This document shows positions 5,512-26,763 of a stretch of DNA of 26,882 nt, piece after piece (within the stretch, counting starts at the first letter, position 1; every line of letters starts with the position of its first letter). The position numbers were made by a program, and so were the translations under genes. Below the pieces are notes generated by a model that was given only the letters and a program-made list of their open reading frames with translations, did not search any database and was not told the DNA's origin. Source of the stretch: an uncultured Thermoleophilia bacterium (GTDB lineage: Bacteria; Actinomycetota; Thermoleophilia; UBA2241); NCBI GenBank assembly GCA_964615105.1, contig CAZTMO010000001.1, positions 1-26,882 on the forward strand, in the 5' to 3' direction.

Positions 5512-5556
5512 CCGCGTCCTCCTCGTGCTGACCGCTCGCTGAAGCGCATCCGAGAC

Positions 5557-5597
5557 TGCCGCAGGCCGGCGGCGACCCTCGTCGCCGGCCTGCGGCA
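5557..5597. terminator. GC-rich hairpin (about 17-bp stem with a 3-nt bulge and 4-nt loop) just downstream of the cupin gene
   Basis: TGCCGCAGGCCG-gcg-GCGAC-cctc-GTCGC-CGGCCTGCGGCA lies 5 nt after the cupin stop. There is no U-tract on the minus strand, so it is either a U-less terminator or an mRNA-stabilising stem. Confidence 0.55.
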
Positions 5598-5602
5598 CGG
5601 GT

Positions 5603-6997: not shown

Positions 6998-7064
6998 AGC
7001 CAACCCCTTTCAGACCTTCGCTCGTGGGAGACGCGCCGCCCGCGACCCCCCTCCTCTCTCCGGC

Positions 7065-9404: not shown

Positions 9405-9886
9405 CGTGACGTCACCTCCTCGCGAAGGTGGTCTCCCGCGGCCTTGACGGCCTCGATGATCTTCACGTAGCCGGTGCACCGGCAGAGGTTGCCCCGCAGC
9501 CCTTCGAGAATCTGTTCCCGGCTGGGATCGGGATTGCGATCGAGCAAGGCCTTCGCCGACATCACCATGCCGGGGGTACAGAAACCGCACTGGATGGCGC
9601 CGTGCTCGACGAAGGCACGCTGTACAGGGTCGAGCGAGCCCCCGCCGGCCAGACCTTCGATCGTCGTGACCTCGCGACCGTCGGCCTCGTGAGCAAGCAT
9701 GAGGCAGGAGTTGACCGGCTGACCGTCGAGCAGCACCGTGCAGGCTCCACACTCGCCCTGGTTACAGCCGTTCTTGGTACCTGTCAAGCCGATGTCTTCG
9801 CGGATGATCTCGAGGAGGGTGCGATGGGTGTCTACGAACAGGTCGTACTCGTCCCCGTTGACCGTTATGTGCAGCTCTCGCTTCAC
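9401..9886 (-). CDS. 2x[2Fe-2S] small subunit of a XDH-family molybdoenzyme (CoxS-like)
   Basis: [28 protein letters not shown] and GNLCRCTGY. The GTG start overlaps the FAD-subunit stop (GTGA). Confidence 0.96.
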
Positions 9887-10764
9887 CCTCGTCCTCCGTT
9901 CGTGACCCAGCCCTGCGCCGCTGTGAGGACGCGCCGCGACATGACCTCCACCAGCACCCGGCGGTACTCCGCCGAGGCGCGGATATCGTCGATGGGGCGT
10001 GACTCCTCGACCGCTTTGGCGGCCGCCGCCGCGATCACGACCTCGTCCAGCTCTCTACCGATCAGCGACGCCTCGGCGGCGCGCGCCCGCATGGGTGTGG
10101 GGGCGACGGCGCCCAGAGCGAGGCGAGCCTCGCGTACGACGACCGACCCCGGCTCGAAGGCGGCGAACAACGCCACGCCGACCGTACAGCAGTCCATGGC
10201 CGAGCGGAACGTCTTCAGATATGTGGCGAAGCTGTCCTGGGGCACGGCCGGCACGCGGACTGCCTTCAGCAGCTCGCCGCACCGCAGAACGGTCTGCCCG
10301 GGCCCCGTGAAGAAGTCCTCGAGCGGGACGACGCGTTCGTCGCTGCCATCGGTGAGAACGGCCTTGGCATCCAGGGCGATCAGGATCGCCGCCATGTCGG
10401 CTGACGGTGCGGCATTGCAGAGGTTCCCCCCGATGGTCGCCCGGGTGCGCACTTGCACCGAGCCGATCCAGGAGGCGGCCCGTGCGATCGCAGGGAAGCG
10501 CTCCATGACCTCAGGTGAATGCTCGATCACGCCGAGCGGCGTGACCGCTCCGATGGCGACGCCGCCTTGGGCGTCCGCCTCGATGAAGTTGAGGCCGGGC
10601 ACGTCACGAAGGCTCACGACCACGTCGGGACGCAGCCCGGCCGCCCTCACCTGTACGAGGACGTCTGTGCCTCCGGCCAAGGCCAGTGCGGAGCCGTTCG
10701 AGCCGGCCAGCACGTCGCAGGCCTCCTTGAGCGAACTCGGACGCGCGTAGTCGAACGCTCTCAT
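9883..10764 (-). CDS. FAD-binding medium subunit of a XDH-family molybdoenzyme (CoxM-like)
   Basis: Start refined to ATG 10764 (MRAFDYARPSSL). Motifs: LAGGTDVL, IGSVQVRTRATIGGNLCNAAPSAD, ALGAVAPTP and IDDIRASAEYR. Confidence 0.95.
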   Translation of the reverse strand: MRAFDYARPSSLKEACDVLAGSNGSALALAGGTDVLVQVRAAGLRPDVVVSLRDVPGLNFIEADAQGGVAIGAVTPLGVIEHSPEVMERFPAIARAASWIGSVQVRTRATIGGNLCNAAPSADMAAILIALDAKAVLTDGSDERVVPLEDFFTGPGQTVLRCGELLKAVRVPAVPQDSFATYLKTFRSAMDCCTVGVALFAAFEPGSVVVREARLALGAVAPTPMRARAAEASLIGRELDEVVIAAAAAKAVEESRPIDDIRASAEYRRVLVEVMSRRVLTAAQGWVTNGGRG

Positions 10765-10789
10765 TGAATCAGCTCCCGTCCGCGGCCTG

Positions 10790-12016
10790 TCATGCCGACC
10801 GGGTCGCCACGCCGGCGCGCGTGTTCTCGATCGGCGCTTCGACCATCGTGATCGCCTCGCGGGCGCACAGGAAGTAGCAGACGGCGCAGGAGTAGCAGTC
10901 CTTCGGCTTGACGAGGACAGCCTTCTTGTCGCGGATCTCGATGCACTCGCAGTGACCCGGCGCGGCGCAGAGACCACACCCGTTGCACTTCTCGAGGTCG
11001 ATCTCGGGGAGCATCGGGATGTAGTGCACCTCGCCCGGGGTGACGATGTACTTGAGAGCGATTCCGCGCATGTCCGCCAACGTCTCGTAGCCATTCTCGT
11101 CCATGAACTTGCGCATGCCGGGCTCGATCTTGGCGAACGCCTTGTAGCCCTTCAGGTAGAGGAGCGAGCAGTACGTGAGCACGGTGGCGCCGTACATGAT
11201 CATCTCCACGGAGTGGCGCCAGTTCATGAGACCGCCACCGCCGGCCAGCGGCAACGTCGGACAGATCGTGCGCATCTGCGCGATATGGCGGTAGGCGAGC
11301 GGCCGGATCCACGGGCCGCAGAGCCCGGCGAAGGACTGGTTGTCGGTCGACGGGTACATCGGCGTGCCGCCGTTCTTGATGTTGAGCGGCGGCAACGACT
11401 GCGGGCAGTTGATGGCCGACACCGCAGCCGCGCCGTTCTTCTCCACCGAACGCGCCACCATCATGGTGTTGGCCTCTGGGGTCATCTTCGGCATCACGGG
11501 GATCTTCACCGCATCGGCCACGGCCTTGCAGACCTGACCGGCCAGTGCCGGGTCCTTGCCTAGGGTGGCGCCGAGCTCGGGCTCTTCGTCGACACCCATC
11601 TGCTTGGCCATGAGCCCCAGGTTCGGACAGCTCATGTTGAGCTCGAGCATGTCGGCGCCGGCCTCTTCGAGCATGCGCGCCAACTTGGCCCAGCCCTCGA
11701 GGTCCTCACCAGGGCCCATCATGTTGGCGATGATCTTGAGCTCGGTCTGCTCCTTGCACTGCTGGATGAGCTCCTGCGTGTCCTCCACGCGCATACGCTC
11801 GCCCGACGGTGAGTAGAAGGCGCCTTCCTTCTCGATGATGTGATAGGGACGCGCGTACAACGGGACCTTGAGAAAGGTGAGCTTCGTGCTGACGGCCGAA
11901 GCGCCGTTCTCCTCAGCCCACTTGATCTTCTCGACCTTGTTCGTCAACTCGGACGAGGCGATGATGAATGGATTCTTAAGCTTGAGGCCTGCGAAGTCGA
12001 CTGACAGGTCAGCCAT
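10790..12016 (-). CDS. preA: PreA-like FMN TIM-barrel oxidoreductase (dihydroorotate/dihydropyrimidine dehydrogenase family) with C-terminal 2x[4Fe-4S] domain
   Basis: Start ATG 12016 after GAAGGGGGAG. Motifs: LSVDFAGLKLKNPFIIAS, LELNMSCPN (active-site loop Cys), PKMTP, SAINC, GLCGPWIRPLA, LAGGGG, CNGCGLC...HC and CYSCAVCYFLC. The symbol indicates similarity, not proven function. Confidence 0.85.
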   Translation of the reverse strand: MADLSVDFAGLKLKNPFIIASSELTNKVEKIKWAEENGASAVSTKLTFLKVPLYARPYHIIEKEGAFYSPSGERMRVEDTQELIQQCKEQTELKIIANMMGPGEDLEGWAKLARMLEEAGADMLELNMSCPNLGLMAKQMGVDEEPELGATLGKDPALAGQVCKAVADAVKIPVMPKMTPEANTMMVARSVEKNGAAAVSAINCPQSLPPLNIKNGGTPMYPSTDNQSFAGLCGPWIRPLAYRHIAQMRTICPTLPLAGGGGLMNWRHSVEMIMYGATVLTYCSLLYLKGYKAFAKIEPGMRKFMDENGYETLADMRGIALKYIVTPGEVHYIPMLPEIDLEKCNGCGLCAAPGHCECIEIRDKKAVLVKPKDCYSCAVCYFLCAREAITMVEAPIENTRAGVATRSA

Positions 12017-13661
12017 CGAGCTCCCCCTTCTGCACGTCGGTTTCCTCTGCGGTCTCTGCAAACCCGGACACCGCCACGGTCTCGCGGGTCGCCTCAAGGC
12101 GCGCGGCGATCTCCAGGTAGCGGCCCTCGACCGCCGCCTGAGCGTCGTCGCGCGCTTCGTCTGTCCAGTAGCCCAGCTCGTAGCCGAACCACGGCTTTCT
12201 CAGGCTCAGCGGCGGCAGGCCCTCGGCCTCCCAGCGCGCCAGCGCCCGTTCCATGAACTCCTTGCGCGGCAGCGACGTCGGCGGGTAGTCCCACTTGCGC
12301 GTCGCGTCGATGAGGATCGCCGACGTCCCCGAGGGCTGCGGGAAGCGCTGTTCGTCGACGTGCGCCTCTGGCGGCGCCGAGGACGGATCGAGGATGCTGG
12401 CCTTGCCGGTGACGATGTGCGTGTCCAGATGTGGGCGCATCCGGTAAGCCATAGCCCAGTTGACGGCATCGGCGTCATTGGGATCGATGTCCTCGTCGAC
12501 GGCGACGATCATCTTGCCGATCGTCGGGTCGAGCGCGACGGCGGCGTGGAGCGCCTGCCAGGGCTGCGACGGGTGTACCTTCTTGAGCTGGATGACCATC
12601 AACCCGTAGCTGCCGGTCATCTCGTGGAGCTGGACGTCGAGGATCCCCGGGATGTTCGCCGACTTCAACCTGTTGAGGTACACGGCGTCATAGGCGAGCT
12701 TGCGGATGAGGCTGCTCTCCGACGGCGGGAACTGGCTCAGGAAGGCCTGGTAGACCGGCGTCTTGCGGTGCATGATCCCCGTCACGTGGAACACCGGATT
12801 GGCGACGCGCGTGCCCATGTAGCCCGTGTACTCGCCGAAGGGCGCCTCCTGCTCGCGGTACGTCGGGTCGACGTATCCCTCGACGACGATCTCGGCGCTC
12901 GCCGGGACCTCGAGATCGACCGTCTGGCACTTGACCAGCTCGATCGGCTCGCCGGCGATGCCGCCGGCAACGGCGAACTCGTCGACGCCGTACGGGATCT
13001 TGGCGACGCTGCAGAGGCCGACGGCCGGCGTGCAGCCGAGGATGATGGCCGCCTCGAGCACCTTGCCGTTACGGCGCGCGCTCTGCAGGTGCAGGCCGAT
13101 GTGTTGGCTCTGATGAGCCATCATGCCGGCCTTTCCGCCCCCCTTCACCATCACCCGGTACGTGCCCACGTTGCGGTCGCCAGTCTCGGGATCCTTGGTC
13201 ACCCAGAAGGGCGAGGTGAAGTACGGCGCGGGGTCGAAGCCCGGCGTGGAGATGGGATGCGGGAACTCGAGAATGCCGTCGTGCTCAAGCAGCCCGTCGC
13301 CGACGTGGATCTCCTCCATGACGGGACCATCGTCGACGAGCACGGGAGGGATGTAGCCTCGGTGGACCGCCGCCCAGCGATCACTGATCTCGTCGGGGCC
13401 ACAGCCGAGCGCCTTCGCGTATACCGCCCGGTTGGCCCCGAGGACACCGACAGCGACGGGGCCGGGGAACGTGCGTCCGTTGACGTCTCTCACGTCCTCG
13501 AACACGAATGCCGTGCGCTGCTCGGCCGGCAGGCCGCGGAACTGCAGCCTGACCAGCGGCATGAGCTCGGTGTCCTTGCAGATCGGCGTGCGCACCCGCC
13601 GGAGCAGGTCTGCGGCCTCCAACGCCGCGATGTACTCGCGAAAATCCTTGTAATAGCTCAC
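12009..13661 (-). CDS. ubiD: UbiD-family prFMN-dependent (de)carboxylase, about 550 aa
   Basis: Start refined to GTG 13661 (GTGA overlap, MSYYKDFREYIAALE). Motifs: RNVGTYR, EIVVEG, EAPFGEYTGY, IVAVDEDIDP and ILIDATR. The symbol is family-level only. Confidence 0.93.
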   Translation of the reverse strand: MSYYKDFREYIAALEAADLLRRVRTPICKDTELMPLVRLQFRGLPAEQRTAFVFEDVRDVNGRTFPGPVAVGVLGANRAVYAKALGCGPDEISDRWAAVHRGYIPPVLVDDGPVMEEIHVGDGLLEHDGILEFPHPISTPGFDPAPYFTSPFWVTKDPETGDRNVGTYRVMVKGGGKAGMMAHQSQHIGLHLQSARRNGKVLEAAIILGCTPAVGLCSVAKIPYGVDEFAVAGGIAGEPIELVKCQTVDLEVPASAEIVVEGYVDPTYREQEAPFGEYTGYMGTRVANPVFHVTGIMHRKTPVYQAFLSQFPPSESSLIRKLAYDAVYLNRLKSANIPGILDVQLHEMTGSYGLMVIQLKKVHPSQPWQALHAAVALDPTIGKMIVAVDEDIDPNDADAVNWAMAYRMRPHLDTHIVTGKASILDPSSAPPEAHVDEQRFPQPSGTSAILIDATRKWDYPPTSLPRKEFMERALARWEAEGLPPLSLRKPWFGYELGYWTDEARDDAQAAVEGRYLEIAARLEATRETVAVSGFAETAEETDVQKGELDG

Positions 13662-15550
13662 AATCCTGCTCCATCCAGTAGGTTCGCGACGATCGGATCG
13701 CTCGTGACCCATTCGAGTCCGAGCCGCTCCAGGGTCTCGGGTGTTGGCATGCTCGTCACCGGGTCGTATCCGCTCGCGGCGTACAGCTCCCGGCGCATGA
13801 GGTCGAAGTCCACGACCTGCCCGGCGATCGGGCCCTCGGGGACCGCCTCCTCGAGGAGCCTCGCCGGGATCGTGTCGTCCTCGGCGCGCAGGCCTTCACG
13901 GACGTTGATGACGCGCTCCAGGGCGTTGATGCGCTCGCCGGCCAGGTACATGTCGGCCGCCGAGAACTCGTGCCCCGTCGCCGTGCCGATGAGCTCGGCC
14001 AGTGTGCCGTCCTGCATGCCGATGGTCAGGAACGCGCACGTGCCTGCGGAGTCGGCCGCCGCGGCTCGCCGGTTGCGGCTGCCGAGCGCGATCGGCGCCT
14101 TGCCCGAGTCCGCGAAGCGGTCGATGTCCGGGTTCGTCAGTTCGGCGGTGACCGTGTAGCCGCCGGCGTGATGGCAGCCGCCCCGGTTGCCGCACCCGTA
14201 GACGAGCGCCATCCCCTTCGCCCCACGAGGATCGTAACCGCCCACCTCCATGCCTTTGGCGTGCATCGCAAAGGCCTCGGAACCCTGGCCGATGCGTTCG
14301 GCCATCGCTTTGCTACCCAGCGCGATCTCAGCGCCGAAGCCGCGTCTGAAGGCGGCGTCCTTGACCAGCTCGATCATCGCCTCCGCGTTGCCGAAGCGCA
14401 GGTCGATGCCCCCTGTGTCTTCCTTGGTGATCAACCCGCGTTCGAAGCACTCCATGGCGAACGAGATGGTGACGCCGACCGAGATGGTGTCGATGCCGTA
14501 GAGATCGCAGAGCTGGTCGGCCGCGATGACCGCGCCCAGATCGTAGACGCCGCACGAGCTCCCCAGCGAGTAGACGGTCTCGTACTCCGGTCCTTCAGAG
14601 GTCGCCCCCGCGTAGGGACCGTCCCGCACGACCGTGACCTTGCTGCACCGCGAGGGACAAGGATCGCCGCACGGAGCGTCCTTAACGAGGTACTGCTCGC
14701 GCAGCATGTCGCCGAGCAGCCCACGACCCTTGTCGACCGGCGCCGACCGCTGCCAGTTGTCGGCCGGCATGATGCCCGAATTGAGCGTCACGGCGACAGT
14801 GCTGACCGAGCCGTGAAGCTTCAGCGGACCAGAGGTGAAGGGGTGCTCACGAAGCTCCTTGACGATCTTCTTGACCGCCGCTTTGAACCCGTCGGGATCG
14901 CCGACGGGCGCGGCCTCTGCGCCCGCGCGCACGACCATGGCCTTGACGTTCTTTGAGCCCATGACAGCGCCGGCGCCGCCGCGGCCGAGCGCACGACGCT
15001 CGTTGAGCAGGCAGGCGTAAGGAACGAGGTTCTCTCCGCCCGGGCCGATGCAGGTGATCGCGACTTGGCCGCGCGGCAGTTCGTCGCGGATGTACTCCTG
15101 CGCCGAAAGCGTATCGAGGCCCCAGAGGTGGCCGGCCGGATGCAGCTTGGCCTTGCCGCCAGTGATCTCGACGTACACCGGCTCGTCGCTACGCCCGGTG
15201 AGGACGATGACGTCGAAGCCGGAACGCTTGATCACCGGTCCCAGATCGCCCCCGGTGATGCAGAAGAGATAGAGCCCGGTCTGAGGCGACTTCGTCGCCA
15301 GGGCGGCCCGAGCAGAACCCGGGGCCGTCGTTCCGCTCAGGGGTCCGGAGGCGAAGATGAGCGGGTTCTCCGGACTCAGCGCGTCGGTCCCTGCGGGCAG
15401 CATGTCGAACAGGTAGCGGGCGGCAAGGCCGCGGCCGCCGACGAAGCTTCTCGCGGCGGCCGCATCGAGATCCTCGACACGCTGCTCGCCGCTGCCGACG
15501 TCGACGACGAGAACCTTGCCCCAGAATCCGCCCACAGGGAACTGCCCCAT
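13658..15550 (-). CDS. aor: Aldehyde:ferredoxin oxidoreductase (AOR/WOR) family tungstoenzyme catalytic subunit, paralog B
   Basis: ATG 15550 lies 6 nt after AAGGAG (alternative GTG 15556). Motifs: GGRGLAA, KSPQTG, GRGGAGAVMGSKNVKA, EGPEYETV, CDLYGIDTIS, KGMEVGGYDPR, RGGCHH and DSAGTCAF. Confidence 0.95.
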   Translation of the reverse strand: MGQFPVGGFWGKVLVVDVGSGEQRVEDLDAAAARSFVGGRGLAARYLFDMLPAGTDALSPENPLIFASGPLSGTTAPGSARAALATKSPQTGLYLFCITGGDLGPVIKRSGFDVIVLTGRSDEPVYVEITGGKAKLHPAGHLWGLDTLSAQEYIRDELPRGQVAITCIGPGGENLVPYACLLNERRALGRGGAGAVMGSKNVKAMVVRAGAEAAPVGDPDGFKAAVKKIVKELREHPFTSGPLKLHGSVSTVAVTLNSGIMPADNWQRSAPVDKGRGLLGDMLREQYLVKDAPCGDPCPSRCSKVTVVRDGPYAGATSEGPEYETVYSLGSSCGVYDLGAVIAADQLCDLYGIDTISVGVTISFAMECFERGLITKEDTGGIDLRFGNAEAMIELVKDAAFRRGFGAEIALGSKAMAERIGQGSEAFAMHAKGMEVGGYDPRGAKGMALVYGCGNRGGCHHAGGYTVTAELTNPDIDRFADSGKAPIALGSRNRRAAAADSAGTCAFLTIGMQDGTLAELIGTATGHEFSAADMYLAGERINALERVINVREGLRAEDDTIPARLLEEAVPEGPIAGQVVDFDLMRRELYAASGYDPVTSMPTPETLERLGLEWVTSDPIVANLLDGAGL

Positions 15551-15552
15551 GC

Positions 15553-16701
15553 TCACTCCTTTGCCAGCGCCTTGCGATACAGGCGCTCGAGGTCGGCAGG
15601 CGACGCGTTACGCACGTTCAGCCTGTAGTTGACGACTTTCGTGCACTGCTCGACCAGTACGGGGATCTCTTCGTCGGTGACGACAGCCGGGTCCAGGGTG
15701 GTCGGGAAGCCCACGGCCTCCATGAGACTCCAGAGGCGATAGAGCAGCTCCTCGGCGAGCTCGGCATCGTCGCCCTGCTCGCCGAGCAACCTCGCGATCG
15801 GGGCGATCTTGGCGCTGGCCACCGGCAGGTTGAACTCCATGGCGTACGGCAGCATGATGCCGGTGGCCAGCCCATGAGACATGTGGAGCCGTCCCAGTGG
15901 CTGCGACAGAACGTGGGCGAGACCCGGCAGCGACGTGCCCGTCGCCATGTTCGCGATCGTGCTGGCCTCGAGCATGCGCTGCTTGGCGCCGAGATCGCCG
16001 GTCAACGCCGCTCTGGGCAGACTGTCGAAGATCGTCGCCGCGGACGTCGCGGCCAAGCCGTCCGAGAAGTCGGTCGCGCCGACCGACCAGATCGCGTCCA
16101 GCGCATGCGCCAGGGCGTCCATCCCGGCAACCAGCGCCGGCCACGCCGGAAGGCTCTCCATGAGTCCGCCGTCCAGGATCGCGACGGTGGGGTACGTGCG
16201 TTCGTCGAGGATCGACATCTTGAAGCCGCGCGCCTCGTCGGTGAGGATCGTCACCTTCGAGACCTCGGTCCCCGAGCCCGCGGTAGTGGGGACGGCGATC
16301 ACCGGGAACGGCGCCTTGGCGGCCTTGTTGAAGCCCTCGTAGTCGGTGAGCACGCCGCCGTTGGCGGCCACGAGGGCGATTCCCTTACCGGCGCACATCG
16401 GGCTTCCGCCCCCCAGAGCTATGACCAGGTCGCAACCCTCCGCCTTGAAGACCTCGACGCCGGCAGCGACGGTGCGCACGCCGGGGTCTTCCTCGACTTG
16501 GTCAAACAGGACATAGGGCAATTCCGCCTCGTCCAGGAGGCCGGTGACGCGGCTCGTCACGCCCGCCGCCGACAGACCGGCGTCAGTACAGATGAACGCC
16601 TTGCTGCCCCCGGAGGCGCGCACCTGCGCCGCGACGGCCCCGATGCTGCCCAGGCCGTGCACGATCCGAGTAGGCATGAAGAAGAGCTTCGGCTGCGACA
16701 T
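15553..16701 (-). CDS. Iron-containing (group III) alcohol dehydrogenase
   Basis: The start is probably ATG 16701 after GGGGGA. Motifs: FFMPTRIVHG, LGGGSPM, VPTTAGSGTEVS, GMDALAHALD and GLAHVLSQ...SHG. Confidence 0.93.
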   Translation of the reverse strand: MSQPKLFFMPTRIVHGLGSIGAVAAQVRASGGSKAFICTDAGLSAAGVTSRVTGLLDEAELPYVLFDQVEEDPGVRTVAAGVEVFKAEGCDLVIALGGGSPMCAGKGIALVAANGGVLTDYEGFNKAAKAPFPVIAVPTTAGSGTEVSKVTILTDEARGFKMSILDERTYPTVAILDGGLMESLPAWPALVAGMDALAHALDAIWSVGATDFSDGLAATSAATIFDSLPRAALTGDLGAKQRMLEASTIANMATGTSLPGLAHVLSQPLGRLHMSHGLATGIMLPYAMEFNLPVASAKIAPIARLLGEQGDDAELAEELLYRLWSLMEAVGFPTTLDPAVVTDEEIPVLVEQCTKVVNYRLNVRNASPADLERLYRKALAKE

Positions 16702-16731
16702 CGATCCCCCAGTCATCAGACTCTTGTCTTA

Positions 16732-16759
16732 AGCATAGTCTATCGTCCAGTATTATGAA
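16732..16759 (-). promoter_or_regulatory. Candidate internal sigma70 promoter (TTCATA-N16-TATGCT) for the adh-to-cupin genes
   Basis: An AT-rich patch overlaps the gntR stop, with -35-like TTCATA at 16754-16759 and -10 TATGCT at 16732-16737. The predicted start is near 16725, about 25 nt upstream of the adh ATG. Confidence 0.5.
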
Positions 16760-17715
16760 TCGGACAAGTCGACCTCGAGGACATCGTCTGCTCCGGCCTG
16801 CCCGCGGACGTCCTCAGGCTCCAAGCTGACGAGCGCAGTACCGTCACGAACGGCTCCGCGCGCGGCCGCTTCACCAGTCAGCGCGTCCCAGAACGTCCCA
16901 CCGTTCTCGTGGCTCCTCGTGAGAAATCCGCGATGCTTGTACCGGTCGGAGCGGTAGTAGACCTCCGCCAGATCGACCACGCGGGCGTCCGACGTGTAGA
17001 CGGTGAGCGTCAGTTTGAGAAGCGAGGTCAGCAGATCCACTTCGAGCAACCTCGCCTGCTCGTCGTCGGCGGCCACCGCCTCGAACATCTGCGAAGCCCA
17101 ATCGACCTTGAAGCCGGTCCGCTTCTCGATCAGCACGATGAGGGGTTCCTTCTCAAGTTCGCTCAGCGAGAGACACGCGCCCACCTCGTACGGGACGTAG
17201 TTGGTCAAGACGGCCAGCGGCCGGTCGCCCACGAGCCGCACACGTTGCACGTAGAACAGGTCCGCGTCTTCGCCGATCGCGAACGTCTCAGCGAGGTCCG
17301 GCGTTGGTTTCACGAGCCTGAACTCGACCACGCGGACGCGCGTGTCGGGCCCGATGTGGATGAGATCCTCCAAGCTCCCGCTGATGTGCGGCGTCGCGTC
17401 GTCGGCAAGCTCCTCCGAGACGAACGAGCCCTTCCCCTTGACTCGCCGGATCAGGCCCTGGTCGTCGAGCATCTGGAGAGCCTGGCGCACCACCACACGG
17501 CTCACGCCGAAACGCTTCGTGAGCTCCGCCTCGGACGGCAACTGGCGCCCAGGCGCGAGCTTGCCCGCGATGATTTGCTCTTTGAGGTTCCGCATGACCT
17601 GGTAGTAGAGGGGGATCCCATTGCGACGACTTGGCCTCCCCCTGCGGGTCGTCGACAGCCGGCCGTCGCCGGCGGCAGCTCCCGGCCCGCCCTTGGAGCC
17701 CCACTGTCCACTCAT
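16753..17715 (-). CDS. GntR-family transcriptional regulator, HutC subfamily (wHTH plus UTRA)
   Basis: ATG 17715 lies 7 nt after AGGAG. The HTH reads IPLYYQV...LPSEAELTKRFGVSRVVVRQALQMLDDQGLIRRVKGKGSFV. The UTRA region includes VQRVRLVGDRPLAVLTNYVP and YYRSDRY. Confidence 0.95.
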   Translation of the reverse strand: MSGQWGSKGGPGAAAGDGRLSTTRRGRPSRRNGIPLYYQVMRNLKEQIIAGKLAPGRQLPSEAELTKRFGVSRVVVRQALQMLDDQGLIRRVKGKGSFVSEELADDATPHISGSLEDLIHIGPDTRVRVVEFRLVKPTPDLAETFAIGEDADLFYVQRVRLVGDRPLAVLTNYVPYEVGACLSLSELEKEPLIVLIEKRTGFKVDWASQMFEAVAADDEQARLLEVDLLTSLLKLTLTVYTSDARVVDLAEVYYRSDRYKHRGFLTRSHENGGTFWDALTGEAAARGAVRDGTALVSLEPEDVRGQAGADDVLEVDLSDS

Positions 17716-17742
17716 GTCCGTACTCCTGCCCCCATGAGGGCG

Positions 17743-18027
17743 TCAGCCCCCGCCCAGCGGCACGATCACCCGCAGCTCCGCCTCGTCGCGCACGACGGCG
17801 TCGGCGGCGACGCGCTCGCCGTCCAGCGTCAGAAAGGTCCTGCCTTCCTGCGGGACGGCGAGCACGTCCAGCACGTCGTCCACCGTGCTGCCGCGCTTCA
17901 ACTCCACGACCGTCCGACCCCGGTCTTCAGGCGGCAGCAGGCTCGCGTGATTGCCGAACAGCACGACCCTGACGCGAACGGTGTCAGCACCGGTCGGCTC
18001 CTGCGCCTGGCGGAGATGCTCGGCCAT
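17743..18027 (-). CDS. moaD: MoaD/ThiS-family sulfur-carrier protein (copy 2)
   Basis: 94 aa ending RVIVPLGGG, immediately downstream of AOR paralog A. The symbol is family-level only. Confidence 0.88.
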   Translation of the reverse strand: MAEHLRQAQEPTGADTVRVRVVLFGNHASLLPPEDRGRTVVELKRGSTVDDVLDVLAVPQEGRTFLTLDGERVAADAVVRDEAELRVIVPLGGG

Positions 18028-18033
18028 CGAACG

Positions 18034-19839
18034 TCAGACACCAAGCCGTTCGCGCGCGGCCGCGGTCGGCACTCCGTCTGCGTCCCAGCCGCGAAGGCTG
18101 TAGTACTCGTCCAGGACATCGGCGACGTCGAGCTTGTGTCCCTCGGGGTCTGACGGCGCCGCCTCTTCCGCGAACCGTCGCGGCAAAGCGTCGTCCGCCC
18201 GTGTGAACCCCTCCTCGACGTTGAAGAGACGCTCCAGCGTATTGACGCGCGAACCTATCGTGTACACGTCGTCCGTCGTGAGGTTCATTCCCGTGGGCAG
18301 GTTCGCACAGCGCGCGTAGAGCTCGACGCTGATGCCGAGGTCGACCGTGAACATGCACATGATCAGCGAGTCGATCATCACCGTGCTGTCCTGCATCCGC
18401 TTCACCAGCTCGGCTTTGCCCTCAAGAGAGTAGCGGTCGTAGTCGCCCAATACCCCGAGGAACTCCGCCGCCACGGTGAACGCCTTGTTGTGGTCGGCGC
18501 CGCGTCCGGTCGTGGCATAAGAGATGCCCATGCCGGTGAAGCCGCGCGGCGCGTAGGCGGCGATCTCGAGGCCCTTCACCTGCATGGCGTACTCCTCGCC
18601 CCTGCCCAGCTTGCGCGCCGCGCCGCGCGACCCGAGGGCGAGCACGTCGCCGAAGCCCTCACGTGCGCCGATGCTGAGAAGCGCGGGCCGCAGGACGTCG
18701 GCGTTGCCGAAGGTGAAGTCCAGCCCGTCGGTCTCGTCCTTCGTCAGCAGGCCCTTCTCGGTCATCTCCATGGCCCACGCGATGGTCGAGCCCGCCGTCA
18801 TCGTGTCGATGCCCATCTGATCGCAGAGGTAGTTGGCCTCCATGATCGCCGTGAGGTCGAGGATGCCGCAGAGGGGGCCGAGCGCCCAACACGACTCGTG
18901 GTCGAGGCGCTCGGATCGATACGAGCGCCCGTCGCGCTCGAACTCCAGGACCGCGCCGCAGATCACGTTGCAGCTGCTACAGGCTTCGCGACCGGTGATG
19001 TAGGAGTCGATCACCTCGTGATGGATCGTGCTGACATCCGGGACTCTGTCGTCCTGATGGTTCCGATAGGGCAGCCCGGTCGCCTCGTTCACGTTCGGCA
19101 GCATGCCGTTGGTCCCGGGCCAGCGAAACGCGGGCCGCACAGGGTTCTCCATGATGATGTCGTGAAGCGCCTTGCACCCGGCGATGTAGTCCGTGGTGGA
19201 CGCTGCGACGCTGACGCCGCCTGAGCCGCGCACGGCGACGGCCTTCAGTCGCTTGCTGCCGAAGACGGTCCCCGATCCGCCGCGACCGGCGTTGTGCTGC
19301 ATGTGCATGAACGTGCCGTAGCGCACGCCGTTCTCGCCGCCCGGGCCGATCGTCCCGATCTGGAAGTCGTGGCCGAGCTCCTCCTCGAGGAGAGCTTGCG
19401 CTTCGAGACACTCCTTGCCCCAGAGCCGCGTCGCGTCGACAAGTCGCGCCTTCTCGTCGTCCACGACCAGCGCCACCGGCTTCTCCGAAACGCCCGTGAT
19501 GATGATGCCGTCCCACCCGGCGTACTTGAGCGCGGGCCCGAAGTGGCCGCCCATGTAACTGGCCGAGATGGTCCCGGTCAGCGGGCTCTTCACGCCGATG
19601 GCGATGCGACTGGCGGTCGGGATCATCGTGCCCGTCGCCGGCCCGGTCGCGAACACGATCACGTTCTCCGGGCCGAGTGGGTCGATGCCCCTCGGCAGCA
19701 TGTCGTAGAGCAGCTTCGCCACAAAGCCGCGCCCGCCGATGTACTTCTCGGCGAGCTCGTCAGTGAGCGGCAGCGAGCCGAACTCCCCGGTCCCGAGGTC
19801 GACGGTCAGGAACTTGCCGGTGTAGCCGCCGTACTTCAT
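18034..19839 (-). CDS. aor: Aldehyde:ferredoxin oxidoreductase (AOR/WOR) family tungstoenzyme catalytic subunit, paralog A
   Basis: ATG 19839 follows GGAGG (ATGA overlap). Motifs: YIGGRGF, KSPLTG, GGHFGPALKYAGWDG, GRGGSGTVFGSKRLKA, CSSCNVIC, CDQMGIDTM, RGADH and DSLIMCMF. Confidence 0.95.
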   Translation of the reverse strand: MKYGGYTGKFLTVDLGTGEFGSLPLTDELAEKYIGGRGFVAKLLYDMLPRGIDPLGPENVIVFATGPATGTMIPTASRIAIGVKSPLTGTISASYMGGHFGPALKYAGWDGIIITGVSEKPVALVVDDEKARLVDATRLWGKECLEAQALLEEELGHDFQIGTIGPGGENGVRYGTFMHMQHNAGRGGSGTVFGSKRLKAVAVRGSGGVSVAASTTDYIAGCKALHDIIMENPVRPAFRWPGTNGMLPNVNEATGLPYRNHQDDRVPDVSTIHHEVIDSYITGREACSSCNVICGAVLEFERDGRSYRSERLDHESCWALGPLCGILDLTAIMEANYLCDQMGIDTMTAGSTIAWAMEMTEKGLLTKDETDGLDFTFGNADVLRPALLSIGAREGFGDVLALGSRGAARKLGRGEEYAMQVKGLEIAAYAPRGFTGMGISYATTGRGADHNKAFTVAAEFLGVLGDYDRYSLEGKAELVKRMQDSTVMIDSLIMCMFTVDLGISVELYARCANLPTGMNLTTDDVYTIGSRVNTLERLFNVEEGFTRADDALPRRFAEEAAPSDPEGHKLDVADVLDEYYSLRGWDADGVPTAAARERLGV

Positions 19840-20246
19840 GAGGCACCTCCCCAGGTGAGCGCCCCTTCGGGACACCACTTGACACAGAGCGGATCACCGT
19901 CGCACAGGTCGCAGATCATGATGCGCCTGTCGACGGCGTCCTGGTGGACGTTCGGGCAGGCGTCGAGACAGGCGCCGCAGTCGGTGCACTCCTCCTGGAT
20001 GAAGCGCACGACGCCGGCCTCCTCGTCCCAGACGAGCGCTTCCTGCGGGCACGCGTCGACGCAGACTCGCTCGTGCGTCATGTCACAGACGGAGCACTGC
20101 ATGGGCCCAAGGTGGATACCCGGCTGTCGCGAGACCTGGATGCACGCCCCGGATGGCTGAACGCGGCCAAGCTTGTTCAGCGAGCACACGCCCGAGCACA
20201 TATCGCAGGCGATGCACTTCTCGACATGGAACTCGATGTAGTTCAT
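19836..20246 (-). CDS. 4x[4Fe-4S] electron-transfer subunit (DmsB/AorA-like)
   Basis: Start ATG 20246 (MNYIEFHVEK). 136 aa with CIACDMCSGVC, CSVC...CVDACP, CTDCGACLDACP and CDLC...CVKWCP. Translationally coupled to AOR paralog A. Confidence 0.93.
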   Translation of the reverse strand: MNYIEFHVEKCIACDMCSGVCSLNKLGRVQPSGACIQVSRQPGIHLGPMQCSVCDMTHERVCVDACPQEALVWDEEAGVVRFIQEECTDCGACLDACPNVHQDAVDRRIMICDLCDGDPLCVKWCPEGALTWGGAS

Positions 20247-20262
20247 GTGTGGTCTCTCCCTG

Positions 20263-21432
20263 TCAGACTTGGTCGAGCTCCGCGAGAAACGCATCGACTC
20301 CGGCGCCCACGTCGGCGCGGGAGCCCATCTCGTTGAGGCAGTCCCCCAGCGCCGTGATGGCGAGAAGGCCGTACGCCGGGCTGCAGGTGCGTCCCATGTG
20401 GCCGAGTCGGACGAGCTTTCCGTAGATGGGGGTGTTGAAGAGGCTCCCCGAGATGAGCACGCCGAACTTCGCGACCATCCGGTCACGCAGCTTCTCATCA
20501 TCGACGCCGTCCGGAACGGCGACGGCGGTGGCCACATTGCACGCGTGCGCCTCGGTGTCGGGCCAGAGCTCGAGCCCCATCGCCTTGACGCCGGCCCGCG
20601 TGGCACGCGCCACCTCGGCGTATCGCCGGAAGTGCTCCTCGTGGCCCACCTCGAGGTACTCGCTCACCGCGGCGTTGAGGGCCGGCACCTCTGAAGTCGA
20701 GGTCGTGTACGGCCAGATCTCCTTCTCGAGCCAGAGCTCTTTCCAGTCAAGGATGCTGAAGTACGAGTAGCGGTTCGGCCGTTTGACAGTGCGGAAGAGC
20801 TCCCACGCGGCGTCGGAGATCGCCATGGCGCTGAGGCCGGGCGGCGCCCCAAGGACCTTCTGTGAGCCGACGGAGACGATGTCGATGCCCCACGCATCGA
20901 CCTCTACGGGGACGCTGCCGGCGCAGCTCACGGAGTCGACGAACACGAGCTTGCCATACTGCTTGCCCAGCTTGGCCAGGGTCTCGAGGTCAGATTGGGT
21001 GCCGCAGGGCGTCTCACAATGCACGAGCCAGAGGATCTTGGCCTCGGGATGCGCCTTGAGGACCGCCTCGAGCTGTTCCGGCTCGACGACGGTGTTCCAG
21101 TCGGTCTCGACCGGGATCGCCTTGGCGCCATACTTCTCGAGGAAGTAGCGGTTGCCCTCGCCGTAGTGCCCGCTCTCGATGTTGATCACCACGTCGCCCT
21201 CGTCGAGGCCGCAGAAGGAGATGGCCTCGAGTCCGAGGAGGGCCTCGCCCTGCATCATCACGATGTCGTTCTTCGTCTTAAGGAAGGCCTTGAACTTCTC
21301 CTGCGTGTCACGGAAGAGCTCCATGTAAGGCTGCGAGTAGTCGAAGAGCAGTTGCCCGCCGAGGGCGGAGCGGACCCTGTCCGAGAGCTCGACCGGCCCC
21401 GCAGTCATGATGAAGTCGATAGATCGGGTCAT
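20263..21432 (-). CDS. ppaT: Pyridoxamine:pyruvate aminotransferase-like protein (fold type I, class V)
   Basis: ATG 21432 lies 8 nt after AAGGAAGG. Motifs: TAGPV, LFDY, QGEALLGLEA, SGHYG, LKAHPE, HCETPCG, VDSVS, SQKVLGAPPGL, SILDW and GKLVRLGHMG. These match the M. loti PPAT sequence as I recall it better than AGXT/PucG (GSG-type motif). Class V membership is near-certain and the specific function is inferred. Confidence 0.8.
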   Translation of the reverse strand: MTRSIDFIMTAGPVELSDRVRSALGGQLLFDYSQPYMELFRDTQEKFKAFLKTKNDIVMMQGEALLGLEAISFCGLDEGDVVINIESGHYGEGNRYFLEKYGAKAIPVETDWNTVVEPEQLEAVLKAHPEAKILWLVHCETPCGTQSDLETLAKLGKQYGKLVFVDSVSCAGSVPVEVDAWGIDIVSVGSQKVLGAPPGLSAMAISDAAWELFRTVKRPNRYSYFSILDWKELWLEKEIWPYTTSTSEVPALNAAVSEYLEVGHEEHFRRYAEVARATRAGVKAMGLELWPDTEAHACNVATAVAVPDGVDDEKLRDRMVAKFGVLISGSLFNTPIYGKLVRLGHMGRTCSPAYGLLAITALGDCLNEMGSRADVGAGVDAFLAELDQV

Positions 21433-21467
21433 ACCGAACACCTTCCTTCGTTAAGTGGGTGACGGGC

Positions 21468-22403
21468 TCACCGCTGACCGCGCACGAACGGGATGGCGAG
21501 CGCCGAGGGCAGCATGCTGTGTCTCGCGAAGAGCGCCAAAGCCGCCATCACGGCGACGAACGGCAGCATCTGGACCAGGTCGGTGGAGATGTTGATGCCC
21601 ACCAACTGCAGGGCGGTGGCGATGGAAAGCGCGACACCGAACAGCAGCGATCCGATGAGCACCCATACCGGGCGTCCACGGCCGAGCATGGCGATCACGA
21701 TCGCGATGAAGCCGTAGCCGCCCGTCATGAACGGTACGAATATCCCGGCCGTCACGATCGCCATGTAACCGCCACCCAGGCCGGCCAAGGCTCCGGTGGA
21801 CAGCGCCGCGACGGTGCGGATCTTCAAGACGTCCACGCCGGCGTTGTCGAGCGCGACGGGCTTCCAGCCGGCGGCCCGGATGTTGAGGCCGAGGTTGGTC
21901 TTGTACAACATCCACCCGATCACGAAGATCAGGGCGAAGCCGATGTACACGATCAGCGGCTGGCTGAAGAGGCTTGGTCCCAACACCGGGATCCGCTCCA
22001 GCCCGGGAATCCCCAGGGTCGGCACGTTGTCGAGGCGAGGGTAGCTCTCGCCGAACTGCACCTGGTGAAGCAAGCTCGTGAGCCCTTCCATGGCGAGCAG
22101 GATGGCGATACCGACGACGATCTGGTCACGGCCCATGCGCACGCAGAAGACGACCATGAGCAGCGAGACCGCCATGCCGGCGAGGACCGCCGCCGCGAAG
22201 CCCAACCATGACGAGCCCGTCCAGTTGGCGGCCACGAACCCGAAGTAGGCGCCGAGGAGCATCATGCCCTCAAGGCCGATGTTGAGCAGTCCGGCTTGTT
22301 CCGAGATCGTCTCGCCGAGGGCGGCAAGGAGCAGCGGCATGCCGGCGAGGACCGCGCCCGTGATGACGGCGGCCACGAACTCAGTGGTCCAGAGCTCACC
22401 CAT
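21468..22403 (-). CDS. CUT2/nucleoside-type ABC transporter permease 2
   Basis: ATG 22403. Motifs: PLLLAALGETISEQAGLLNIGLEGMMLLGA, NIRAAG...AGVDV and GYGFIAIVIAMLGR. Multiple hydrophobic segments. Confidence 0.93.
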   Translation of the reverse strand: MGELWTTEFVAAVITGAVLAGMPLLLAALGETISEQAGLLNIGLEGMMLLGAYFGFVAANWTGSSWLGFAAAVLAGMAVSLLMVVFCVRMGRDQIVVGIAILLAMEGLTSLLHQVQFGESYPRLDNVPTLGIPGLERIPVLGPSLFSQPLIVYIGFALIFVIGWMLYKTNLGLNIRAAGWKPVALDNAGVDVLKIRTVAALSTGALAGLGGGYMAIVTAGIFVPFMTGGYGFIAIVIAMLGRGRPVWVLIGSLLFGVALSIATALQLVGINISTDLVQMLPFVAVMAALALFARHSMLPSALAIPFVRGQR

Positions 22404-23559
22404 TGCCGACGACCTCCTCGCGCCCGGGCGGGACGGGGTCACGGTCCTCAGCCGCCACCGCCTGTCCCTTGTCGGCCTTCTTGAACCAGCCTCGCGTGCG
22501 AGCCCATTCGGTGAAGACCATGAAGAAGAGGATGAGTCCCACGAGAAGCAGGAGGAAGTCGTTCGGCAGTCCCGCCTGTCGCGCCGCCTCGTGCCCGCCG
22601 ATCTGGATCACGGCGAAGAAGAACACGAAGGGGATCACCACCATGACATTGAGCCCGGCGAGAAAGACGATGGCGAACAGCGTCATGCCGAATGCCGGGT
22701 TCCAGTCGGAGCGCACGTAGCCCCACACTCCCAACACCTCGACGGCAGCGGCAAGTCCGATGAGCGCGCCACTCAGGGCGAACGCGGTGATGATGTCGCG
22801 CTTCACGTTGATGCCGGCGTGTACCGCGGCCTTGGGGTTCAGTCCCAGCATGCGCAGCCGCAGGCCGTACCCCGTCCGGGTCTGCATGTAGTGCACGATC
22901 GCCAACACGACCAAGGCGATGACGATGCCGATGTGGATGCGCGTCCCGGGTATGTACGGCAGAAGCTTCTCGAAGGGGATGACGTCGGTCTGGGGCATGA
23001 ACGCCTGCGTCGTCAGGAACGGCCCCTTGATCAGCATGTTGGCGAGATTGATGCCGACGTAGCTCATCATGAGGACGCTGATGATCTCGTTGATGCCGTA
23101 GTAGGCCTTGAGCACCGACGGGACGACGGTCCACGCCCCGCCTACCGCGAACCCGATGACGCACAGCAGGATGAGGGCCAGCCAGACGGGCATGGCGTTG
23201 GTGAACGGGACCCCGAGCCCGCCGATGATCGCCGCAGCCATGAGGAACTGCCCGTCACCGCCGATGTTCCAGAGCCCGGCCTGAAAGGCGACGATGAAGC
23301 CCGCCGACATCAGCAGCAGGGGTGCGAGACGAATGATCGTCTGCATCAATCCACTCCACGTGAACAGGCCGCTCTGGAGCGTGGTCACATAGAAGGCGAT
23401 GGGGTCTTTGCCCAAGACGAGCAGAAGCACGCCCCCGGCGATGAGGCCGTAAACGACGGGCGCCGCCACTCTCCAGAACGCCTTGGCCGCGCGCAGAGCC
23501 GCGGGCGCCTCGGTCGAGACCTGGACGGGCAACAGCGTCCCTTCAGCCATGTCACTCAC
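22396..23559 (-). CDS. CUT2/nucleoside-type ABC transporter permease 1
   Basis: GTG 23559 lies 8 nt after GGAGG (alternative ATG 23550). Motifs: GLWNIGGDGQF, GINEIIS, GYGLRLRMLGLNPKAAVHAGIN and ALSGALIGLA. Confidence 0.93.
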   Translation of the reverse strand: MSDMAEGTLLPVQVSTEAPAALRAAKAFWRVAAPVVYGLIAGGVLLLVLGKDPIAFYVTTLQSGLFTWSGLMQTIIRLAPLLLMSAGFIVAFQAGLWNIGGDGQFLMAAAIIGGLGVPFTNAMPVWLALILLCVIGFAVGGAWTVVPSVLKAYYGINEIISVLMMSYVGINLANMLIKGPFLTTQAFMPQTDVIPFEKLLPYIPGTRIHIGIVIALVVLAIVHYMQTRTGYGLRLRMLGLNPKAAVHAGINVKRDIITAFALSGALIGLAAAVEVLGVWGYVRSDWNPAFGMTLFAIVFLAGLNVMVVIPFVFFFAVIQIGGHEAARQAGLPNDFLLLLVGLILFFMVFTEWARTRGWFKKADKGQAVAAEDRDPVPPGREEVVGNG

Positions 23560-25237
23560 CCTGGCCGCCTCCAATCATCAGGGCGCCGATCTCCTGCTCC
23601 GCGCCGGATTTGTTCTGCACGATCCCCATGAGACGGCCGCGCGACAGGACGGCGATCCGATCGCAGAGCACGAGCAGCTCTTCGAGATCGGTGGAGATCA
23701 CCAGGGCTCCGGCGTCGCCTGTGTCGGCAAGCTGTCGGATCCGGGAGCGCACGGCGTTGGTCGTCTTCACGTCCAGACCGTACGTGGGTTTGTTGAAGAC
23801 CACGACTTTGGGATCGAACGAAAGCTCGCGAGCCAGCACCACCTTCTGCACGTTGCCGCCCGAGAGGGACCCGGCGTGCGTGTGGATGGTCGGAGTCATG
23901 ATGTTGTACTCACGCACGAGCTCGTCGGCGTTGGCGTCGATGGCTTCGAACCGCGTCCGTCCCCCGACCCAGAACGGGGCCATGCCGATGCGCTTGGTCA
24001 CCATGTTCACGGCGACACTGAGCGGCCCGACGATGCCTTCGTTGAGGCGGTCGTCGGTGACGTAGCGCAGGCCGTGCCGTTGACGAGCCTTGATACTGAG
24101 CCTGCGCATGGATCTGCCGTCCAGCCGGATGTCGCCGCCGTCAAGCCTTCGCTGCCCGGCGATGGCCTCGGCCAAGGGCCGCTGACCGTTACCGTCGACG
24201 CCGGCGACGCCGACGACCTCGCCAGCGTGCACCGTGAGGTCCAGCGCCTCGTCGATGCCGATCTCGCCACGGCCTCCTGTCACCATGACGCCCTCCAGCT
24301 CGAGCAGAGGCTGGCCGCCGCTCTCGGTTCGCCCGGCGGCGCCGCCCAATTCGGAGAGGTCGTGCAACTCGGCGACATTGGCGAGGCTCTCGGCCTCGCC
24401 GGGGAACATGAGGTTCACGACCATGGCGTGGAGATCCTCGTGCGACGAGCGCCGCATGGTGTCGCCGTCGATGGTCCCTTCCAGACGACCTTGACGCAGT
24501 ACCGATACACAATCGCCGATGGCGAACGCCTCGCGGAGCTTGTGGGTGATGAAAATGACTGCGAGGCCTTCCTTCTTCAACTGCACGATCACGCGTTCGA
24601 GGTCCTCGATGCCCTTGGGGGTCAGCATGGACGTGGGCTCGTCCAGGATCAGCACCTTCGATCCCTGCCACAGCGCCTTGAGGATCTCGACCTGCTGCTG
24701 CTGCCCCAGAGAAAGCTCCTGCACGACGGTGTCTGAGTCGACCTCCACCCCGAGGGTCGCCGACAACCGCGCCAAACCCTCCTCGGCCTTCTTCACACTC
24801 AGTCGCACCCCCTCGCCTTGCCCGAGCATGAGGTTCTCGAGCACGGTGAAGGTGGGGATCAAGCTGCTGTGCTGGTGGACCATCCCGATGCCGAGCTCGA
24901 TCGAGTCGCGCGGGCAGCTGATGCAGACCTCCTCGCCGCACACGCGAATGCTGCCTTCGTCGGGCTGGTAGATGCCGGCCAACACGTTCATCAACGTCGA
25001 CTTGCCGGCGCCGTTCTCTCCCAGCAGGCAATGGACTTCGCCCTGCCGAACCAGCAGGTTGACGCAGTCGTTGGCGCGCACCCCGGGAAAGATCTTGGTG
25101 ATGCCGCAGAACTGGATCGCGACGATCCTGTCGTCGCCGTTCCCACCCGGAGCTGCCTCGACGGGGCGGGCGGGCGCGGTCCCGAGACCGCGCCCGCCCG
25201 CCCCGTCGCTCTCGCGAGAGACGGGGGCCATCGTCAC
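23552..25237 (-). CDS. CUT2-type ABC transporter ATP-binding protein (two fused NBDs)
   Basis: Walker A GENGAGKST, GMVHQH, LSLGQQQ and ILDEPT. The second, degenerate NBD has LSGGNVQK and FNKPTYGLD. GTGA overlap with the bmp stop. Confidence 0.95.
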   Translation of the reverse strand: MTMAPVSRESDGAGGRGLGTAPARPVEAAPGGNGDDRIVAIQFCGITKIFPGVRANDCVNLLVRQGEVHCLLGENGAGKSTLMNVLAGIYQPDEGSIRVCGEEVCISCPRDSIELGIGMVHQHSSLIPTFTVLENLMLGQGEGVRLSVKKAEEGLARLSATLGVEVDSDTVVQELSLGQQQQVEILKALWQGSKVLILDEPTSMLTPKGIEDLERVIVQLKKEGLAVIFITHKLREAFAIGDCVSVLRQGRLEGTIDGDTMRRSSHEDLHAMVVNLMFPGEAESLANVAELHDLSELGGAAGRTESGGQPLLELEGVMVTGGRGEIGIDEALDLTVHAGEVVGVAGVDGNGQRPLAEAIAGQRRLDGGDIRLDGRSMRRLSIKARQRHGLRYVTDDRLNEGIVGPLSVAVNMVTKRIGMAPFWVGGRTRFEAIDANADELVREYNIMTPTIHTHAGSLSGGNVQKVVLARELSFDPKVVVFNKPTYGLDVKTTNAVRSRIRQLADTGDAGALVISTDLEELLVLCDRIAVLSRGRLMGIVQNKSGAEQEIGALMIGGGQGE

Positions 25238-26334
25238 TGCCCTGAAGCGATGAGGTCCTTGACTTGCTTACCCTTCGTCAGCTCGGGCACCTCGACGCTG
25301 CCGTCCAGGATCCCGGCCTTCGCGTTCTCGCAGGCCGTCCAGACGTCGTCGGGGATGTACTCCGTGTGCAGCAGCCCCATGCCGTTATCGAGGTCGAGGT
25401 AGAAGCTCGCCTCGCCCATGGTCCCGGCCTCGTAGTCCTGAAGGGCTTTGGTCATGAGCGGCGCCCAGTCCCACAGCACCGACGAAAGCAAGACGCCCTT
25501 CTTGTCGGTCGGCGACTTGTCGCCGATCACGTCGATGAACCAGACCTTGTCGGCGCCCTTCGGCGGGGTCGCGGTCTCGACCGCCTGCATCATTCCGAAC
25601 GAAGCACCATCGCCCATGCCGAAGATGATGTCGGCGCCACCGGAGATCGCGCTCGCGGTGACGCGCTTGCCGCCCGCGGCGTCGGCATAGGCAGCCTGGC
25701 CGATCTGCACATAGAGGATCTTCGTGTCGGGAGCGACCGAACGCACGCCGGCCACGAAGCCGCCCGCCTGCTTGGACCAGTTGAGGTCTTCTGCCGACAC
25801 GACGATCGCGACCGTGCCCGACTGCGTCATCTTGCCCGCGAGAACGCCGGCGAGGTAGCCGCCGTGCTCTCCTCTGGTCTCCATGGCCTGCACGAGCTGC
25901 GGGACGTTGACTTCCTCGTTGCCCGGGTCGCTCGCCGTCACAGGAATGTCGAGCGTCTTGGCCATCTTAGGGCCGACGGTGTTGTAGCCGCTCGCCCACG
26001 GGAAGATGACCTCGGCGCCGGCGGAGGCGCCCTGCTCCATGATCGGCGTGTTGTCGCCGTAGCCCGCCCCGTCCTGAATGATCAGCTCGGCGCCGATCGC
26101 CTCGGCAGCCGCCTTGGCGCCTTCCACACCCTGCTGGTTCCAGCCGTAGTCGTTACCCTTCTCAGGGGTGATCACGGCGACTTTGGTAAGCTCGACGCCG
26201 GCGGCCGGCGACTCAGCGGCACCACCCGTATCGTCACTGCGGCCGCCGCAGCCGGCGACCAGCGCGATCATGACCGCGAGCACCATCAGGGCGACCAGAA
26301 GTCCGCTCAGCCGAAAGAACTTGCTGCTCTTCAT
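25234..26334 (-). CDS. BMP-family (PnrA/Med-like) ABC substrate-binding lipoprotein
   Basis: Signal peptide with lipobox LVAGC, NDYGWNQQG, GYLAGVLAG, GGFVAGV, GADIIFG and WFIDVIGD. It is the first gene of the cluster. Confidence 0.92.
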   Translation of the reverse strand: MKSSKFFRLSGLLVALMVLAVMIALVAGCGGRSDDTGGAAESPAAGVELTKVAVITPEKGNDYGWNQQGVEGAKAAAEAIGAELIIQDGAGYGDNTPIMEQGASAGAEVIFPWASGYNTVGPKMAKTLDIPVTASDPGNEEVNVPQLVQAMETRGEHGGYLAGVLAGKMTQSGTVAIVVSAEDLNWSKQAGGFVAGVRSVAPDTKILYVQIGQAAYADAAGGKRVTASAISGGADIIFGMGDGASFGMMQAVETATPPKGADKVWFIDVIGDKSPTDKKGVLLSSVLWDWAPLMTKALQDYEAGTMGEASFYLDLDNGMGLLHTEYIPDDVWTACENAKAGILDGSVEVPELTKGKQVKDLIASGQ

Positions 26335-26676: not shown

Positions 26677-26763
26677 CACGCAGCCAGGTGACCGGGAGGG
26701 CCGACGACGCCCGCCGAAGCGCGATCACGAGGCGAAGGCGTCATGCCCCGCGCCGCTCGCGAG

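Follow-up and report, generated by a model that had tools for sequence, protein, structure and literature searches.

The DNA analysed here, called the window throughout, is a stretch of 26,882 nucleotides from an uncultured Thermoleophilia bacterium (contig CAZTMO010000001.1), and our subject is a four-gene ATP-binding cassette (ABC) importer on its minus strand whose cargo is very probably a form of vitamin B6. Analysis of the open reading frames (ORFs) of the window showed four intact, co-directional and tightly packed frames running from position 26334 down to 21468. The first encodes a substrate-binding lipoprotein of the BMP/PnrA family (366 aa, 25234..26334, minus strand), which matches Pfam Bmp PF02608 with an E-value of 1.7e-19 (70.4 bits, cut-off 24.1) and has a lipobox ending in Cys29. 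Its stop overlaps by 4 nt with the start of a CUT2-type tandem ABC ATPase (23552..25237, minus strand), recognized by its motifs and by model NF047930, which has two ABC_tran domains, an intact N-terminal Walker A, a degenerate second Walker A and a C-terminal LSGGN signature. Two BPD_transp_2 (PF02653) permeases complete the run on the same strand, subunit 2 at 22396..23550 (frame open from 23574) and subunit 1 at 21468..22403 (frame open from 22442), and their likely starts, the ATG codons at 23550 and 22403, are both preceded by a purine-rich site. A lipobox lipoprotein of PF02608, a tandem ATPase and two PF02653 permeases in one run make up a complete BMP/CUT2 ABC importer, as the original prediction had described it, and an import role for permeases and ATPase is established for this architecture.

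The four genes are presumably co-transcribed. Upstream of the BMP gene lies a long leader, non-coding in appearance (26335-26882). An Rfam scan of 16000-26882 showed no riboswitch, with no match of any kind, FMN riboswitch included, upstream of the BMP gene, while a promoter scan returned no site, none sigma-70-like in the BMP leader, and terminators at chance level.

Family assignment and substrate pocket

By a wide margin, the best NCBIfam match of each of the four subunits is one of the 'putative B6 ABC transporter' models NF047927-30. The ATPase passes its cut-off (676.5 bits against 670, NF047930), but permease subunit 2 (399 against 400, NF047929), the BMP protein (371.6 against 400, NF047927) and permease subunit 1 (434.6 against 465, NF047928) do not. 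Judged from these matches, the importer is best regarded as a divergent representative of the putative B6 family of NCBIfam. It shares with that family the gene order and the link to an aminotransferase of the pyridoxamine-pyruvate aminotransferase (PPAT) type, but it stands beside AOR and UbiD genes rather than the classical enzymes of the Mesorhizobium loti type, and its host genome has no pdxST, pdxJ or known kinase. B6 had originally been put forward as a new ligand for BMP proteins; that novelty is lost, since the idea is already an NCBIfam prediction. ESM Atlas returned generic BMP clusters only, and no study of the ligand or function of this importer family was found in the literature searched, which covered few subscription papers.

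The only characterised prokaryotic B6 transporters are PdxU, PdxU2/HmpT and P5PA, with substrates verified for two of them (PMC9997740). The original prediction had described known bacterial uptake as mainly by ECF-type or other carriers, a picture that stands for ECF-type PdxU, PdxU2/HmpT (PF07155; PMC9997740) and has to be widened to include P5PA/P5PAB, an ABC-type importer of pyridoxal 5'-phosphate (PLP) with a binding protein of a different family (PF13531; PMC8427247, PMC9997740). All of these import B6 forms, but none is a BMP/CUT2 system.

The AlphaFold2 model of the BMP protein (pLDDT 95) resembles BmpD, PnrA and Lbp with a TM-score of about 0.8, and its pocket is lined by W65, N66, Y92, Y117, W186, Y216, D268, I270 and W288. 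The conserved nucleoside pocket of BmpA consists of Phe27, Phe151, Phe176, Val224, Asp225 and Lys242, and the ribose is contacted by Asp98, Asp225 and Lys242 (PMC13325309). When these positions are mapped through Lbp and PnrA, and not from BmpA directly, the stacking aromatics Phe27 and Phe176 correspond to W65 and Y216 (99-100% conserved) and Asp98 to D136 (conserved in 83%). The ribose-binding residues, in contrast, are replaced, Asp225 by Ile270 (83/83) and Lys242 by Trp288 (82/83); Phe151 has become Gln or Met189, and an invariant Asp268 has taken the place of a Gly. The protein thus has the stacking aromatics of a PnrA-type receptor without its ribose-binding Asp and Lys, and the modelled pocket would fit a small cationic aromatic ligand that carries no ribose. 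At one related locus (L041:1673-2818), a second BMP paralogue has an altered pocket (W186F, W288Y).

An ordinary BMP importer, taking up a nucleoside, a nucleobase or a futalosine-type nucleoside, has to be weighed at this point, as the ligands known for solved close relatives are in every case nucleosides, guanine/atrazine or riboflavin, and the window copy is the only BMP found in its genome. The nucleoside BMPs PnrA/TmpC (2FQW, 6Y9U), BmpA/BmpD (9Q1U, 6SHU) and Lbp (7X0R) share with the present protein the fold, the CUT2 operon, both stacking aromatics, a DxxFN-type motif with Asn66 kept, and the aspartate now at 136, but identity is 16-26% and the four pocket changes described above separate it from them. 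Riboflavin is a far weaker candidate and can be regarded as highly improbable. RfuABCD (4IIL; PMC3573665) is a case in which an importer of the BMP family, with the same fold and operon type, has been repurposed to supply an auxotroph with a vitamin; however, RfuA is the weakest BMP fold match of our model (E 1e-13, 15% identity) and gives no sequence match. The upstream region lacks an FMN riboswitch, and lumazine synthase, used as a control on vitamin identity, is present in 5/5 carriers tested, so that the carriers, unlike what would be expected of riboflavin auxotrophs, retain a marker of riboflavin synthesis, and lose pdxST instead.

Gene neighbourhood of the importer

The importer stands directly upstream of a PPAT-like gene, as originally noted: the start codon of this class V aminotransferase (20263..21441, minus strand), at 21441, lies 26 nt beyond the last permease stop. 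Its top PDB match is M. loti PPAT (2Z9U, E 1e-80; runner-up 8e-46), whose phosphate-site glutamate, Glu68, aligns with Glu66, and the catalytic lysine is present as Lys195. This glutamate is kept in 62/62 aminotransferases co-located with importer homologues, and the genome's two other class V paralogues carry Gly-Thr or Gly-Ser at its position. The protein scores 344.6 against a cut-off of 600 for the PPAT model NF046070, and the arginine of the SGRG motif of 2Z9U (Arg336) is replaced by Leu334 (Tyr or Gln in most homologues), a change that may reflect a different keto-acid preference. Alignment with 2Z9U leads us to regard the enzyme as PPAT-like but divergent, with a predicted conversion of pyridoxamine to pyridoxal. 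A second PPAT-like gene, 86% identical to that of the window, was seen in another genome (G021, L088:266-9955) beside a family-5 peptide-type ABC system, a GntR gene and a 514-aa class V protein.

This arrangement recurs in 80 related loci (42-81% identity) from Actinomycetota, Chloroflexota, Alphaproteobacteria, one spirochaete and one SAR324, the closest relatives carrying Thermoleophilia titles. A B6-catabolic marker is present in 68 of the 80, and in 40/44 of the loci of at least 20 kb; PPAT is found in 59, 4-pyridoxolactonase in 41, FHMPC dehydrogenase in 33 and pyridoxal dehydrogenase in 31. In one alphaproteobacterial locus (L077), the NF047927 BMP, 4-pyridoxolactonase, PPAT and pyridoxal 4-dehydrogenase are all above their cut-offs. 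Among 36 genomes of the same family as the window's, BMP occurs in 11, PPAT in 11 and both in 10, and in nine of those 10 the two genes lie on one contig about 5 kb apart. These data bear out the originally proposed link between the importer and B6 breakdown, which the distribution of pdxS, described below, extends to vitamin salvage.

PPAT is not beside the importer everywhere (L146 and L194 lack it), and alanine dehydrogenase adjoins the importer in L188 and L190, near both importer and PPAT in the latter (L190:5812-6924). Other arrangements were noted as well. A 92% complete genome (G041, L081:6400-11443) has the importer and pdxS, with no PPAT-like gene found, and L010:7215-15900 carries tandem duplicated BMP and PPAT genes. 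The alphaproteobacterial B6 clusters L065, L070 and L077 contain genes that look, by sequence only, cupin-dioxygenase-like, LVIVD-repeat-like, RidA-like and GST-like, while luciferase-like monooxygenase, Amidohydro_2, M29, cupin, class II aldolase and XDH-type genes surround the importer in the actinobacterial L076, L009 and L191.

Downstream of the PPAT-like gene, Pfam and NCBIfam delimit a block of putative breakdown genes (5266..20246, minus strand), the order of which is conserved in relatives: ferredoxin, AOR A, MoaD, GntR/UTRA, Fe-ADH, AOR B, UbiD, PreA-like, xanthine-dehydrogenase-type (XDH-type) M/S/L, M29/NicX-like, cupin and MoaD. AORs can run in reverse, and with two of them in the window and 4-pyridoxolactonase homologues in half of the related loci, the main cargo could conceivably be 4-pyridoxate or its lactone, taken up for breakdown or for reduction back to pyridoxal. 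We consider this improbable: a carboxylate would suit the acidic pocket less well than a cation, no neighbour is as constant as PPAT, and PdxS-negative carriers with no adjacent AOR or catabolic gene (again L146 and L194) need a cargo that can be converted to PLP.

The XDH-type trio and the PreA-like protein add a caveat absent from the original prediction, as they could suggest purine or pyrimidine breakdown, and in families f1 and f4 the importer is flanked by mqn genes; a nucleoside-type cargo would serve either set. However, both the XDH-type and PreA-like matches are under NCBIfam cut-offs, and aerobic and alphaproteobacterial members lack the mqn neighbours. Pfam scans of 20 window ORFs gave no match to families of nucleoside phosphorylases, nucleoside hydrolases or sugar catabolism. 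In tblastn, 12 phosphorylase/hydrolase queries matched neither the window nor any of 101 related loci, although they recovered the genome's own phosphorylases on other contigs as a positive control; the cluster is therefore as free of such genes as had been claimed. Since a nucleoside cargo would also leave the pdxS pattern and the B6 neighbours unexplained, we hold it to be about as improbable as 4-pyridoxate. In L020, L026, L084, L189, L194 and L195, from two families, the importer lies beside menaquinone genes of the futalosine pathway, after which heterodisulfide-reductase-like genes often come.

Distribution of the importer and of pdxST

A line of evidence different in kind from gene neighbourhood is provided by the loss of B6 synthesis genes in carriers of the importer. 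The class was represented by 301 genomes, all at least 90% complete except that of the window, of which 24 have BMP without PdxS, eight have both, five have neither and 264 have PdxS only. BMP is thus present in 24/29 PdxS-negative genomes, nine of them assigned by their absence from the PdxS-positive list, and in 8/272 PdxS-positive ones. The 24 PdxS-negative carriers are spread over four families. In the family of the window (75 genomes), the corresponding numbers are 11, 4, 5 and 55, and an RpoB tree of 40-41 family genomes places PdxS-negative carriers at several points, beside PdxS-positive sisters. Fisher tests gave p values of 9e-7 (family) and 6e-24 (class), but these tests take no account of kinship, and we do not treat them as proof.

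Examination of the pdxST site corroborated this pattern. In seven PdxS-positive relatives the gene order is EF-G-like gene, pdxS, pdxT, yebC, whereas the EF-G-like gene abuts yebC, with pdxST missing, in the genome of the window (contig C22, gap of about 50 nt) and in nine other carriers (gaps of about 10-175 nt). An assembly gap can be rejected as the cause in these 10 genomes, the only ones checked, since in each of them a single contig carries the two flanking genes side by side. Because PdxS is present in 272/301 genomes of the class, we infer that pdxST was lost in carriers and not gained in the others. PdxJ, the alternative means of B6 synthesis, was absent in 34/34 genomes tested. In one genome (G179, L188:8273-16437), mqnC, pdxS, pdxT, the four importer genes and alanine dehydrogenase follow each other in one direction. 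The loss of pdxST in carriers suggests that the importer supplies a vitamin and not only food.

Form of the cargo and PLP supply

The originally proposed B6 cargo is supported by the family models, by the conservation of the neighbourhood, by the remodelling of the ribose site and by a distribution complementary to that of pdxS, and it is very likely that the four genes import a compound of this type if all its forms are counted. Several points weigh against this. The ligand assignment rests on sequence, context and predicted structure, and the pocket mapping on alignments of about 25% identity via Lbp and PnrA; three of the four subunits are slightly under the cut-offs of models that are themselves labelled only 'putative'. 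The window's genome is only 81% complete, five PdxS-negative genomes of the class lack BMP and eight carriers keep PdxS, and an independent-pairs test in the family (7 pairs, on average 4.5 the same way and 0.3 opposite) was not significant (sign test p=0.125). Finally, 19 of the 24 PdxS-negative carriers have neither PdxJ nor a PdxK/PdxY/ThiD-type kinase, and hence no known route from a free vitamer to PLP.

The kinase search was repeated with TIGR00687, since PF08543 alone scores true PdxY weakly (E 2e-15), and TIGR00687 was above its cut-off in only 2/40 genomes. Two of the PdxS-negative carriers have PdxY, three a ThiD-type kinase and 19, the window's genome included, neither; the best PfkB protein of that genome is 1-phosphofructokinase-like. 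Because these kinase-less carriers still encode PLP enzymes, either imported pyridoxal is phosphorylated by an unrecognised kinase or the cargo enters as PLP or pyridoxamine 5'-phosphate (PMP). In family f1, a full-length ThiD/PdxK-family kinase occurs in only 9/75 genomes. In three PdxS-negative genomes of the same genus as the window's (G000, G010 and G017, two of them at least 95% complete), canonical glyA was not found, and the SHMT family was matched only weakly (E ~1e-33), in frames of 930-990 aa (G000:C5:7496-8713 and its counterparts).

A phosphorylated cargo would be used directly as cofactor, with the surplus dephosphorylated before PPAT and the breakdown enzymes. This would account for the 19 kinase-less carriers, and it has been argued that genomes with neither synthesis nor salvage have to take up PLP in some unknown way (PMC9997740); importers without a neighbouring PPAT (several, such as L146 and L194) are compatible with it, and so are Lys59 and Lys188, which are common in actinobacterial members while alphaproteobacterial members have other residues there. 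However, acidic and aromatic residues occupy the invariant pocket positions, none of which is Arg, and the core pocket is identical where the enzymes of the cluster work on free vitamers. Among the annotated cluster genes no phosphatase or kinase family was detected, and the phosphate-site glutamate of PPAT excludes phosphate. Alternative B6 kinases also remain to be found (PMC9997740), and the two PdxS-negative carriers with true PdxY fit free-vitamer import. Import of PLP or PMP thus appears unlikely, although less so than the other alternatives. The acidic pocket, the shared core in free-vitamer clusters and the two carriers with PdxY favour free vitamers, and the system is probably an ATP-driven importer of unphosphorylated B6, most likely pyridoxamine, possibly pyridoxine or pyridoxal.

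For such a free vitamer we infer the ligand, its pose and the salvage chemistry as follows. The membrane-anchored BMP protein would stack the pyridine ring between Trp65 and Tyr216, while the acidic aromatic pocket (E58, D62, D268), having lost the ribose-binding Asp and Lys, would hold the cationic, hydroxymethyl-bearing vitamer, to be carried inward by the two permeases and the tandem ATPase. The PPAT-like enzyme, if Glu66 is a guide, would convert pyridoxamine and pyruvate to pyridoxal, which Fe-ADH may also yield. Part of the pyridoxal would then be broken down via 4-pyridoxate by AOR and the downstream block, and part would have to become PLP, because the window's genome lacks pdxST and pdxJ, by a kinase step with no assigned gene. 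The cargo may thus serve two uses, breakdown and PLP supply.

Bacterial B6 uptake is an open problem, with 848 genomes described as having no known route of B6 synthesis or salvage (PMC9997740), and the present family has so far rested on a 'putative' label. Given that label and the loss of B6 synthesis genes in most carriers, the importer is a good candidate for one of the B6 transporters yet to be found in bacteria. Its identity as a B6 importer was already predicted; what is added here is that pdxST is lost in a complementary pattern and that a kinase is missing. A cargo of free B6 would require an undescribed pyridoxal kinase in these lineages. Should the doubtful alternative hold, in which the BMP family imports PLP or PMP and alone replaces synthesis and kinase salvage in Thermoleophilia lineages with repeated pdxST loss, no earlier BMP-type importer would have carried a phosphorylated cofactor, and the system would give one explanation of how bacteria without kinase or synthesis obtain their PLP.

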